Source of the DNA: Bacteroidales bacterium
GTDB taxonomy: Bacteria; Bacteroidota; Bacteroidia; Bacteroidales; UBA1715
DNA length: 31,081 nt
Reading direction: 5' to 3'
Assembly: GCA_031262005.1 (NCBI GenBank)
Contig: JAISIO010000143.1
Span: 1-31,081, forward strand
The notes beneath the pieces are model-generated. The model made no database searches. It saw only the letters and a list, made by a program, of their open reading frames with translations, and was not told where the DNA came from. Position numbers and translations under genes: made by a program. Position 1 is the first letter of the stretch, and every line of letters begins with the position of its first letter. Positions 5,751-10,073 of this stretch are shown piece by piece.

Positions 5751-6215
5751 ATGACTAACGAAGAATTAAAACAACGAATTGCGCAACTTTGCGCCGATGC
5801 GGTTTGCACCGACACTCAAGATTACGTGCTTGCCGAAATTCCTGCAAATAGTCTTTTTGCAGTTGCAAAACAGTTACAAGAACAACCCGACACACAGTTC
5901 GACTATTTATATAGCCTTACAGGCGTGGATTATAATCCCGAATTGGGCGTTGTATATCACTTGGAATCAACCACATTGCACCATAAAATTACTTTAGTTG
6001 CCAAAACTGCCGACCGTGAAAATGCACGATTGGATTCAGTGTGCGAACTATGGAAAACTGCCGAATTGCAGGAGCGAGAAGTGTATGATTTATTGGGAAT
6101 TACGTTCAACAACCACCCCGATATGCGTCGCCTACTGTTGGACGAAGAATGGCATGGACACCCGTTGCGTAAAGATTACAGCAATCCGCAACTTATAGTT
6201 GATTTAATAAAATAA
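5751..6215 (+). CDS. nuoC: NADH-quinone oxidoreductase subunit C (stand-alone, not fused to D)
   Basis: FDYLYSLTGVDY, VVYHLES, WKTAELQEREVYDLLGITFNNHPDMRRLLL, GHPLRKDY. Confidence 0.95.
   Translation: MTNEELKQRIAQLCADAVCTDTQDYVLAEIPANSLFAVAKQLQEQPDTQFDYLYSLTGVDYNPELGVVYHLESTTLHHKITLVAKTADRENARLDSVCELWKTAELQEREVYDLLGITFNNHPDMRRLLLDEEWHGHPLRKDYSNPQLIVDLIK
6193..6215 (+). repeat. Left copy of 23-bp imperfect direct repeat (attL-like), equal to the last codons and stop of nuoC
   Basis: TTATAGTTGATTTAATAAAATAA; 20/23 identical to 10029-10051. Confidence 0.8.
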
Positions 6216-6220
6216 AAATC

Positions 6221-7528
6221 ATGAGAATAGTTGGTCTTGTTGTGAGTTTACTGTTTGTTGTAACCATGGGAGTTGCACAAATGGAAGTGAATAACACGAC
6301 AGGCAATATCTCAATAGGTACTGTAGTTCCCAATACTGACACCAAACTGCTTATGCAAAGTGCAAGTTTGTATGGAATGTATATGGTAAATACAGGAGTT
6401 ACTACTGGTTCACCAGCTCAGCCGAACAAAACAGCCAATGGAATTTATATACACAATAGTGCAGGTAGTTATTCTGGCACTAGCACGGGAATAGCTATAG
6501 AAAATTCGGCTTCTGGTGCGGGTGGTTTTCCTGGTTCTCACTCGATTGGATTATCTATAAATAATACAGGTTACGGTGGTGCTAGCGGTACTTATGCGTA
6601 TGGGATTTCTTGCGAGAATACGATAACAGCACCAATAACAGCTTCTGCGTATGGAGGGCGTTTTACAACAACAACAACCTCTACCGAAGCTAACGTTTAT
6701 GGCATATATTCAACGGTTTCGGGTGTAACTCCGGCAAAAACCTATTCCGGTTATTTTACAGGAGGCAGAGTATTGATTAATAATAATGATTTGTATGTAA
6801 CTGGTAATGTGTATGCTAATAATTTTCCTATTACAAGTGACGAACGCTTAAAAAGTGATATAAAACCATTAACAAATGAAATAGATAAACTGTATCAATT
6901 ACAGGGAAAATCATACAAAAAAGCCGCTGTTGTTATTGAACTACAAGATACGTTATCAATAGAATTACGAGCTAAAAATGAAAGGAAAATTGTTGATCCT
7001 ATTGCTGAGTTTGGCTATTTAGCACAAGAATTGAAAGAAGTTTTTCCTGAATTGGTGAGCATGGATTCTACGAGTGGTTATTATTCGGTAAATTATATCG
7101 GTTTAATTCCTGTAATGGTAGAAGCATTGAAAGTTCAACAACAAAGAATAGAATACTTAGAAGAAACTATAGCAGGTTTTAATACAAATGATACTCTAAA
7201 ATCGGCTGCAATAGACGAAAGCGAAGCAATACAAAATATGTGTTTTTCTGATAATGCAGCAATAGAAGGTTTGAAACTCTATCAAAATGCACCAAATCCA
7301 TTTAATGAACGTACAACAGTAAAATGTTATGTGCCACAGCAAATTCAAAAAGTGCAGTTGTGTGTTTATAATATGCAAGGTGTGCAAGTACAATGTATAA
7401 CTATTGTAGAACGTGGGAACATTTCTATTGAAATAGAAGCGGGGGCACTTTCGGCAGGCATTTATGGTTATGTGTTGCTTGCTGACGGTGCTGCGAGTGA
7501 AACTAAACAAATGATTCTGACTAAATAA
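6221..7528 (+). CDS. Secreted tail-fibre-like protein: signal peptide, beta-helix-like repeats, peptidase S74 intramolecular chaperone, coiled coil and T9SS type A C-terminal domain
   Basis: Signal peptide MRIVGLVVSLLFVVTMGVA-Q; repeats GMYMVN/GIYIHN/GIAIEN/GLSINN/GISCEN/GIYSTV; S74 start TSDERLKSDIKPL (Ser206), FGYLAQELKEVFPELV and VNYIGLIPVMVEALK; CTD LYQNAPNPF...VYNMQG...GIYGYVL...KQMILTK. Confidence 0.88.
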   Translation: MRIVGLVVSLLFVVTMGVAQMEVNNTTGNISIGTVVPNTDTKLLMQSASLYGMYMVNTGVTTGSPAQPNKTANGIYIHNSAGSYSGTSTGIAIENSASGAGGFPGSHSIGLSINNTGYGGASGTYAYGISCENTITAPITASAYGGRFTTTTTSTEANVYGIYSTVSGVTPAKTYSGYFTGGRVLINNNDLYVTGNVYANNFPITSDERLKSDIKPLTNEIDKLYQLQGKSYKKAAVVIELQDTLSIELRAKNERKIVDPIAEFGYLAQELKEVFPELVSMDSTSGYYSVNYIGLIPVMVEALKVQQQRIEYLEETIAGFNTNDTLKSAAIDESEAIQNMCFSDNAAIEGLKLYQNAPNPFNERTTVKCYVPQQIQKVQLCVYNMQGVQVQCITIVERGNISIEIEAGALSAGIYGYVLLADGAASETKQMILTK

Positions 7529-7746
7529 GGGGCGGGGTATTTAATGAAATTCAATGGGTTTCATTCGATGAAATAATGTTGTATGAGAAACGATAGGAGT
7601 TACTTGTTTAATAGCCGAGGTAATAGAAAGTTAGATACGCTTATATTCTTTGGTTGAAGTATAAACGGTTAAAAAAAATAAATATAGAATACAAAAAGAA
7701 GTAGAAAGTTATTATGCGTATGCAGAGTTTGAAGTTATATAAAATA

Positions 7747-8442
7747 ATGATTACGAGAAAAATAACTGTAAATTTATTTATAGTATTGCTGTTTGTATTC
7801 TGCGGTTGCAATAAATCAGAAAACCATCCACAAACCAATGATTTTGAAAATCAATCGACGACAATGAGTGGCACATGGAAAGTAGAAGCATTATATTCTA
7901 AAGGAGAATTGACCAATATTAGTTCATTATTCGATAATGATGCCACTTACTCGCATATTTCAATAATAATTCCGGATACTACACAAGGAATTATATCGGG
8001 TAATACATTTTATGATACATTTGAATATTCATTTAAAATAGAGGAACCTCAACAAATCTCTATATATAACTATAAAGAAACTCATTATGTTGCAAATGAA
8101 TTGATAATTTGCTTTGCACAAGAAATAGATGTTGAAGAATTTGCTGTTAATTCTAATCTTGGTGTTATGCCCAAGCGTTCATTATGGGATTGGAAAATTT
8201 GGCTTTTTGAGACAAATGGAACAAAACCATTAAGTGAGCTAATAGATATTCTATCTCAAAACGATGTCGTAAAGTATGCGCAGTACAATCATAATGGTAT
8301 TGAATTACGAAATACGAACGATGCGACTTTTAGGGAAAGTATGTATAATACTGTGAAATATGAAATTTCAAATAATGAATTAGTTTTTATAAATGCTGAA
8401 AACCAGCCTATTATTTTTCTTACTAAAATCAAAATGCCATGA
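7747..8442 (+). CDS. Lipoprotein with a META-like domain interrupted by a subtilase-propeptide-like domain
   Basis: ATG 7747 gives MITRKITVNLFIVLLFVFCG-C21 (lipobox). META-like halves GTWKVEAL...IISGNTF and TFRESM...YEISNNELVFI flank a 75-aa segment similar to the downstream S8 propeptide. ATGA overlap with the S8 start. Confidence 0.75.
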   Translation: MITRKITVNLFIVLLFVFCGCNKSENHPQTNDFENQSTTMSGTWKVEALYSKGELTNISSLFDNDATYSHISIIIPDTTQGIISGNTFYDTFEYSFKIEEPQQISIYNYKETHYVANELIICFAQEIDVEEFAVNSNLGVMPKRSLWDWKIWLFETNGTKPLSELIDILSQNDVVKYAQYNHNGIELRNTNDATFRESMYNTVKYEISNNELVFINAENQPIIFLTKIKMP

Positions 8443-10019: not shown

Positions 10020-10028
10020 AAAATGAGT

Positions 10029-10051
10029 TTATAATTGATTTGTTAAAATAA
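10029..10051 (+). repeat. Right copy of the 23-bp direct repeat (attR-like), a displaced nuoC 3' end
   Basis: TTATAATTGATTTGTTAAAATAA reads ATA ATT GAT TTG TTA AAA TAA = IIDLLK*, versus IVDLIK* in nuoC. Confidence 0.8.
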
Positions 10052-10065
10052 TATTTATACTTTTG
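10035..10065 (+). promoter_or_regulatory. Putative internal promoter for nuoD-N
   Basis: TTG at 10035-10037 and TACTTTTG at 10058-10065 (20-nt spacer), 8 nt before the nuoD ATG. Context TACTTTTGCCCG resembles the nuoA promoter TACCTTTGCCCC. Confidence 0.6.
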
Positions 10066-10073
10066 CCCGCATT

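Follow-up and report, generated by a model that had tools for sequence, protein, structure and literature searches.

How does a respiratory operon come to carry kilobases of unrelated coding sequence between two genes that normally adjoin each other? The question is raised by the window analysed here, the entire 31,081-bp contig (JAISIO010000143.1) of a fragmented metagenome-assembled genome (MAG) of a Bacteroidales bacterium (1.58 Mb in 205 contigs, 79.6% complete), in which a 3.8-kb stretch separates nuoC from nuoD in the operon for respiratory complex I. We consider it probable that this stretch is an operon-embedded copy of a fast-evolving, multi-copy module for cargo of the type IX secretion system (T9SS), sitting in a slot of variable content. 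Such a module encodes an S74 protein resembling a tail fibre, at least one middle protein and, as its large peptidase, a protein with a common tail of ~45 amino acids (aa). In the following, G000 denotes the window genome, G001 and G002 are congeners, and labels of the type L0xx stand for fetched metagenome contigs or loci.

Genes were called from open reading frames (ORFs) together with Pfam and NCBIfam profile searches. Between the nuoC stop codon (6215) and the nuoD start codon (10074) these gave three plus-strand genes for secreted proteins, which bears out the co-oriented secreted-gene cassette described at this position in a first-pass annotation made from the sequence alone:

5751-6215, plus strand: nuoC (stop at 6215)
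6193-6215, plus strand: left repeat copy, the last 23 nt of nuoC including the stop codon
6221-7528, plus strand: S74/T9SS fibre-like secreted protein, 435 aa (Pfam/NCBIfam), starting 5 nt past the nuoC stop
7529-7713, plus strand: AT-rich spacer (29.7% GC) between the S74 and lipoprotein genes
7714-8442, plus strand: lipoprotein, 242 aa, with a conserved Cys32; its stop overlaps the S8 start (ATGA)
8439-10019, plus strand: Peptidase_S8 subtilase, 526 aa (E 3e-27, 96 bits)
10029-10051, plus strand: right repeat copy, 20 of 23 positions identical to the nuoC end, followed by a nuoC-nuoD spacer of ancestral type
10074-11192, plus strand: nuoD

The 435-aa protein consists of a signal peptide, a Gly/Thr-rich repeat region, an S74 intramolecular-chaperone domain, a coiled coil and a T9SS C-terminal domain. 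Its membership in the Peptidase_S74 family is supported by a Pfam match of 48.7 bits (cut-off 22, E 1e-12) and by the Ser/Lys self-cleavage motif SDERLK at residues 206-211. The signal peptide, the Por_Secre_tail domain and the T9SS core present in the genome (SprA and GldM) identify it as T9SS cargo, with the type A tail being a borderline case by profile: PF18962 is among the precomputed hits, and TIGR04183 scores 22.0 bits against a cut-off of 23. The 242-aa lipoprotein matched no family in Pfam or NCBIfam. The third protein has a signal peptide, a prodomain (residues 31-133), a catalytic domain and a C-terminal tail of 40 aa (9897-10016). D165, H216, the oxyanion residue N287 and S397 are invariant across 20 homologues, as expected of a subtilase; the dentilisin model matches with 49 bits, below its cut-off of 300. 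The S8 protein does not qualify as T9SS cargo by the same signs, as an uncatalogued tail takes the place of the type A domain. Profile searches detected no domain of an integrase, transposase or relaxase anywhere on the 31-kb contig, the insert included, in agreement with the first-pass annotation for the cassette itself.

The insert is also distinct in composition. Its GC content is 34.5%, the genome having 39.3%, which places the insert at the 0.9th percentile among 1,716 equally sized windows, and GC at third codon positions (GC3) of the three genes is 0.217-0.231, the 0.8th to 1.4th percentile of 864 long ORFs, with 0.37-0.45 in the nuo genes. The AT-richness noted earlier is thereby placed near the first percentile on both measures, and the hand counts given for it (16/60 GC at 8401-8460 and 32/60 at 10441-10500) are exact.

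The junctions, too, speak for a true insertion. The inserted DNA proper comprises about 6216-10028, position 6193 being the first base of the 23-nt repeat. The right repeat copy starts 10 nt past the S8 stop codon and ends 22 nt before the nuoD ATG. A second match to the 23-mer arose in none of 100 shuffled sequences, and the 23-mer is otherwise unique in the 1.58-Mb genome, even if up to four substitutions are allowed. The insert is thus flanked by direct repeats derived from its target, as known for integrative islands.

NuoC and NuoD were each searched for in 300 genomes of the order, of which about 112 others have both. In all of these except one (G064), nuoC and nuoD are fused or less than 180 nt apart, so that the two genes are indeed normally adjacent or fused, as had been assumed. 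Fusion into one frame of 540-580 aa is found in roughly a third of the complex I-bearing Bacteroidales, and the window's family has separate genes; in the other genera of this family (G004, G005 and G008) the gap amounts to about 25-90 nt. Interruption of the junction is thus rare and, within the sampled family, confined to the window's genus. In G064, a member of another family of the order and the only other split junction among the ~112 genomes, the insert is a co-oriented toxin-antitoxin pair of 0.9 kb, consisting of a nucleotidyltransferase (115 aa) and a HEPN protein (135 aa) between nuoC and nuoD (contig C547; L040:2196-2940).

For the genus itself, six alleles of the site were compared (G000, G001, G002, L056, L057 and L059). 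Five of them carry cargo, different in each case, and L056 is empty; inspection of close relatives for an empty site or other cargo had been set beforehand as a check, and both were found. In G002 (NCBI MAG GCA_009786075.1, with the same allele on a separate JGI metagenome contig, L058), the S74 gene is followed by genes for a YD-repeat protein (301 aa), a further protein of 163 aa and a trypsin-like peptidase (560 aa) that ends in the same tail; the nuo-site S74 proteins of G000 and G002 are 57-62% identical. The G001 allele has shrunk to 676 nt; it contains a mini-ORF resembling a signal peptide, an ORF of 106 aa and a relic of the protease tail (44 codons), in which the last 30 nt of the tail-coding end are tandemly duplicated. 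L059 has a PrcB_C protein, a 626-aa S8 protease with the tail, an S74 protein and three further ORFs up to the contig end, and L057 a 112-aa lipoprotein and a trypsin (PF00089), again up to the contig end. As the right junctions of L057 and L059 lie beyond these contig ends, the comparison for these two covers the left side. None of the five other alleles contains a recombinase gene at the nuoC-nuoD site.

L056 is the closest relative of the window (NuoA, B, C, D and H are 95, 99, 95, 96 and 94% identical in amino acid sequence). Here nuoC and nuoD are 21 nt apart, which provides the empty site in a close relative that one would look for in the case of an island. The end of its nuoC equals the left repeat exactly, and the 18-nt spacer resembles that past the right repeat of the window, so that the L056 junction looks like the product expected from recombination between the two repeat copies with loss of the cargo. 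In a nucleotide tree of nuoB plus nuoC, (G001,((G000,L056),(L057,G002))), L056 is sister to the window with support of 99/98, i.e. the empty allele is nested among filled ones. L056 also has a 308-aa ORF between nuoH and nuoI (10368-11294), two genes that overlap in the window. An assignment of its product as a PD-(D/E)XK transposase-like protein found no backing in Pfam/NCBIfam and was dropped. The 308-aa protein, like the 163-aa protein of G002 and the 106-aa protein of G001, belongs to no Pfam or NCBIfam family.

Nucleotide homology between the filled alleles points to conserved edges around an exchanged interior. Between the window and G002 it extends over 4804-6337 (87%, from nuoA to 115 nt inside the S74 gene), resumes at 6830-7530 (78%, the chaperone and sorting part of S74) and again from 9856, the tail-coding end of the protease, through nuoD (87%). 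With G001 it ends exactly at the nuoC stop and returns at 9906. The right junction, homologous tail-coding DNA leading into nuoD, is common to G000, G001 and G002 at 82-87% identity, and the right repeat copy of G002 has the same three differences as that of G000. What the three species have in common is thus the edges of the insert, not its interior. Because they share the right junction, the insertion is older than the split of at least three species.

The genes in the slot belong to a larger family. The C-terminal third of the window's S74 gene matches two other contigs of G000 with 74-81% nucleotide identity, and on one of these (C75) the S74 match is followed by genes for a secreted 288-aa protein and an S8 protease with the same kind of tail. 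Protein searches with S74 gave four matches in G000, nine in G001 and ten in G002, and zero to four much more distant ones in other genera. Judging by the two well-assembled congeners (G001 and G002), the module family is resident in the genus with about 10 copies per genome. Ten fetched loci share one architecture: the S74 protein comes first and ends in a nearly invariant stretch, one to three secreted proteins follow, many of them with T9SS domains, and a protein of 500-625 aa (S8, trypsin-like, C1 or unassigned) with the conserved tail of about 45 aa stands last. The three-gene order was also seen in Dysgonomonadaceae and other metagenomic Bacteroidales.

The tail has a consensus of roughly C..INVQNV.V..GA.L.L.A.....I...F.VELG..L.I and nothing corresponds to it in Pfam or NCBIfam. 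It is present on S8, trypsin-like and C1 peptidases, namely at 9897-10016 of the window and at C-termini in L029, L041, L045, L050 and L059, and longer S8 homologues have a T9SS type A domain where the tail stands. A structure look-up (Atlas), to be taken as a lead only, gave look-alike ends of 60 residues on C25, S8, M43 and M23 peptidases of Bacteroidota.

GC3 is 0.21-0.31 in every module copy examined and 0.36-0.48 in the adjoining housekeeping genes. Because all copies share this low GC3, the AT-richness of the insert is a mark of the module family and no evidence for recent arrival of the nuo copy. Of the acquired island proposed in the first-pass annotation, the insertion as such stands (order-wide scan, repeat, composition and empty site all agree), but the one-off foreign island gives way to a resident multi-copy family, and the suggestion of a stray element that lost its recombinase is not supported as it stands.

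A second operon of the genus is affected as well. In G001 (contig C28; L046:5500-7700), another S74 module separates atpB from atpE in the F-type ATP synthase operon. Co-oriented with the operon, this module codes for an S74 protein of 328 aa and a Listeria-Bacteroides-repeat protein of 222 aa, and also contains a truncated trypsin-like gene and a relic of the tail that is out of frame. The same site is empty in G002, G004 and G008; the corresponding G000 contig starts 43 nt upstream of atpE. The spacer upstream of this S74 gene is only loosely similar to the atpB-atpE spacer, so that a target duplication is ambiguous and is not claimed here. In both eroded modules of G001 (L028:9120-9254 and L046:5600-5650), the surviving part is the tail-coding 3' end beside the downstream nuoD or atpE.

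The simplest history compatible with these sequences is one insertion before the species split, followed by exchange or erosion of the contents and a precise loss in L056. In a first step, a module would have inserted right after the nuoC stop codon in the ancestor of the genus, together with a duplicate of the last 23 nt of nuoC. Its contents would then have been exchanged or eroded with the edges kept, i.e. the nuoC end on the left and the tail-coding 3' end, repeat and spacer on the right. Finally, a clean loss of the cargo in the L056 lineage would have left behind a single repeat copy plus the spacer. In the S74 tree, the window copy falls into a clade with three G002 copies (91/90), and the nuo-site copy of G002 is closest to a G002 copy beside metH. 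Together with the outcome of the topology test given below, this would fit an exchange among paralogues.

How is such an insert expressed, and how are the genes behind it? The 11-subunit nuo cluster (4828-18555, plus strand) is complete and co-oriented in the order A, B, C, D, H, I, J, K, L, M, N (NuoABCDHIJKLMN) with all genes intact, and contains no nuoE, nuoF or nuoG. Besides nuoC and nuoD, the following features matter here:

4662-4707, plus strand: strong hairpin terminator (19-bp stem, then a T run) after the upstream Fe-alcohol dehydrogenase gene
4763-4792, plus strand: match to the Bacteroidota-type promoter (TTTG, 18 nt, TACCTTTG), 36 nt before nuoA
4828-5193, plus strand: nuoA
about 5190-5741, plus strand: nuoB
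10058-10065, plus strand: TACTTTTG box, a match to the -7 promoter box of Bacteroidota, 8 nt ahead of the nuoD ATG
10074-18555, plus strand: nuoD, H, I, J, K, L, M and N, all intact

The predicted terminator marks the start of the nuo transcription unit, and 4763-4792 is likely the promoter of the whole unit, the cassette included. This assignment relies on the position past the terminator and before nuoA, not on the motif match alone, which is weak, the full motif occurring twice in the window with 2.8 matches expected. A sigma-70 promoter scan stayed at chance level, its model not being suited to Bacteroidota. In stand-alone modules, a TAnnTTTG box precedes the S74 start by 35-60 nt, and two of these modules also show a clear hairpin terminator past the tail gene; both features are missing from the nuo and atp copies. 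In the nuo copy, the repeat and nuoD follow directly on the protease stop. The spacer at 7529-7713 contains neither a TAnnTTTG motif nor a canonical terminator and folds no better than shuffled sequences (z = -0.15). No convincing terminator was seen inside the cassette, and an Rfam scan of 4500-11500 gave no match. Since the nuo copy lacks a promoter and a terminator of its own, the cassette is most likely transcribed from 4763-4792 within the nuoA-N message. For nuoD-N we infer expression by read-through, perhaps helped by the TACTTTTG box as a candidate internal promoter, a possibility that we regard as a weak lead. Of the three positions at which the right repeat departs from the left, two change GATTTAAT to GATTTGTT (10038-10043), which creates a TTTG 16 nt upstream of the TACTTTTG box; this TTTG within the right repeat might be a -33-like element. 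The empty-site spacer of L056 lacks the -7 box.

As to the proteins, the S74 product has the build of what we infer to be a self-cleaving trimeric fibre. It would trimerise, cleave itself at Ser206 and be exported by the T9SS. Since the sorting domain stands past the chaperone, cleavage at Ser206 would release the fibre from the portion recognised and anchored by the T9SS. Phage tailspikes and endosialidases with an S74 chaperone share the Pfam match, the SDxRxK motif at the start of the domain and N-terminal repeats of fibre type. The window gene differs from them in being a chromosomal bacterial gene with a Sec signal and a T9SS sorting domain past the chaperone, and in having no phage genes nearby.

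The family of the lipoprotein is small, with 71 representatives among 1.84 billion proteins, and has two forms. Short members consist of a single beta-rich domain of about 150 aa, whereas long ones, that of the window included, have an insert of about 90 aa. In the window this insert comprises residues 123-216 approximately (nt 8080-8361) and lies inside a META/DUF4847-like beta domain; Foldseek finds DUF4847 and HslJ/META structures similar to this host domain. Between the insert and the prodomain of the S8 protease next to it (residues 31-133), amino acid identity is 36% (BLASTP E 2e-14), with 79% nucleotide identity over 63 nt. The AlphaFold2 model of the insert has the order beta-alpha-beta-beta-alpha-beta (residues 129-191, pLDDT above 90) and is superimposed by Foldseek on subtilisin/furin prodomains, with a TM-score of 0.62-0.71 normalised by target, and on POIA1 (hits 1spb_P, 1scj_B, 9fid and 1v5i_B). 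By fold and homology, the insert belongs with the Inhibitor I9/subtilase prodomains, and the lipoprotein family appears as a clear case of domain insertion of a partner protease's prodomain.

Homologous pairs of lipoprotein and S8 genes recur beside the closest S8 relatives. From sequence and model, the lipoprotein is most likely a dedicated inhibitor of the protease or its folding partner (chaperone), and the protease would be secreted or anchored via its tail. Subtilisin propeptides and I9 inhibitors such as POIA1 and yeast PBI2 are the obvious parallel, as the insert folds like a prodomain and is paralogous to that of the neighbouring protease; in the window, however, the prodomain copy sits in a loop of a beta-rich lipoprotein domain, and inhibition is a prediction. 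The dentilisin system PrcB-PrcA-PrtP is comparable in that a lipoprotein gene is translationally coupled to the S8 gene, and L059 has its PrcB_C protein in that position.

Several points weigh against the account given so far, or narrow it. An AU (approximately unbiased) test of the two nuo-site S74 copies (G000 and G002) as a clade gave p = 0.046, and the notion of one ancestral insertion, as drawn from the sequences, would hold for the junctions, not necessarily for the genes now present. The empty site of L056 could stem from replacement by an empty allele rather than from excision, and L057 and L059 may represent separate insertions. The box at 10058-10065 is only partly conserved, reading TACTTTTA in G002 and TATATTTG in G001. 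TAnnTTTG boxes are not enriched in the window (48 versus 44 expected), and because they are not commoner than chance, a single box is weak evidence. That the cassette is expressed at all is a prediction from sequence, as are read-through and the internal promoter. The Foldseek E-values of the lipoprotein model are weak (above 0.01). The case against misassembly rests on cargo at the same site in independent assemblies.

What alternatives are there to a resident module in a variable slot? One would be a classical integrative island, a foreign element that entered site-specifically at the 3' end of nuoC through a tyrosine or serine recombinase, with the repeats as attL and attR and the recombinase gene lost later. 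The direct repeat that regenerates the nuoC end, the atypical composition and the clean empty site in L056 would all suit it, as would a paralogous module of G002 that adjoins a truncated phage-integrase gene. We nevertheless regard this as unlikely, given that no recombinase is found in the insert, the contig or the five other alleles, that no att-like sequence (nor an inverted-repeat motif) common to the ends of 11 module copies was seen, and that the family is resident, multi-copy and of uniform composition. In addition, identity to the nearest S8 relatives from other genera is no higher than 57-59%, and therefore there is no sign of recent import. Islands targeting the 3' ends of tRNA, tmRNA and some protein genes do resemble the nuo insert in the repeat of the target end, the intact target, the presence or absence among relatives with a clean empty site and the atypical base composition. 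They differ from it by their integrase, which is missing at every nuo allele, and by a common att core; the nuo insert, in contrast, is one of a resident multi-copy family and sits in an essential operon with no promoter or terminator of its own.

Alternatively, the nuoC-nuoD junction might be a permissive hot spot for recurrent independent insertions, with the empty site of L056 being ancestral. Cargo that is different in every species and the unrelated HEPN/MNT pair at the same junction in another family (G064) would be in line with this. Yet the right junction common to G000, G001 and G002 with 82-87% identity into nuoD, the same three differences in the repeat copies of G000 and G002, and the nesting of the empty allele within filled ones in the nuoB-nuoC tree make a hot spot quite improbable.

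An assembly artefact, i.e. a chimeric contig with the cassette actually lying outside the operon, might come to mind with a fragmented MAG in which the C-terminal region of S74 is repeated. It is very hard to reconcile with cargo at exactly the same junction in the independent assemblies of G001, G002 (NCBI MAG and JGI contig L058), L057 and L059, with both junctions lying in unique sequence, and with the S74 gene 5 nt past the nuoC end at one side and the tail running into a spacer homologous to that of the relatives at the other. That the three genes are functional accessories of complex I, such as assembly or turnover factors, is scarcely credible despite their co-orientation, tight spacing and lack of terminators, as no other genus has them and neither does the closest relative, different species hold unrelated cargo, each of the three proteins has an export signal and the same modules occur at many unrelated loci.

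We return to the resident T9SS-cargo module and its place among known systems. Integron cassettes are likewise promoter-less, co-oriented and served by an upstream promoter, and occupy one site with contents varying between close relatives. The units at the nuo site are multi-gene modules, however, with a respiratory operon as their 'platform', and no intI, attI or attC-like inverted repeats were found at the cassette ends. That unrelated genes occur inside nuo clusters is known in principle, since the nqo/nuo clusters of Paracoccus denitrificans and Rhodobacter capsulatus contain scattered unidentified reading frames (URFs). These alphaproteobacterial URFs also lie among the nuo genes, are unrelated to complex I and are co-transcribed; yet they are small, conserved within the lineage and do not form secreted-protein modules, whereas the cargo in the window is large and dispensable and varies from one species to the next. 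The novelty lies in the size of the insert and its secreted-protein cargo, in its turnover between species and clean loss, and in the parallel provided by the atp operon. In our literature searches, neither S74/T9SS modules nor split nuo operons were found described for Bacteroidota.

For completeness, the flanks of the nuo cluster contain genes for a DUF4301 protein, a TPR protein, a ComA-type phosphosulfolactate synthase (2390-3157) and the Fe-alcohol dehydrogenase (all within 1-4626), and for an 822-aa RCC1-repeat protein on the minus strand (19487-21955). None of these flank genes is related to mobile elements.

The bolder proposal, of which we are rather doubtful, is that the modules would be undescribed, mobile, promoter-less cargo units that colonise cistron junctions of essential bioenergetic operons with constitutive expression (nuo and atp). 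They would borrow the transcription of the host operon and duplicate a short piece of their target for later precise removal, and their contents would be swapped by recombination between conserved ends with no recognisable recombinase. The variable fibre, the likewise variable peptidase of clan S8, S1 or C1 with its common tail and the cognate, prodomain-derived inhibitor would then form polymorphic effector/immunity sets.

Core respiratory operons are usually seen as fixed; here, a complex I junction is a variable cargo site within one genus. This offers a natural system for how an essential operon tolerates kilobases of foreign coding sequence and how accessory genes live on housekeeping transcription, as well as for the gain and precise loss of inserts without a known recombinase. 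It also brings up two uncatalogued protein features that are easily tested, a tail shared across peptidase clans and a lipoprotein family with the captured prodomain of its partner. If the bolder proposal were true, the modules would supply secreted effector/immunity sets for competition or host interaction.

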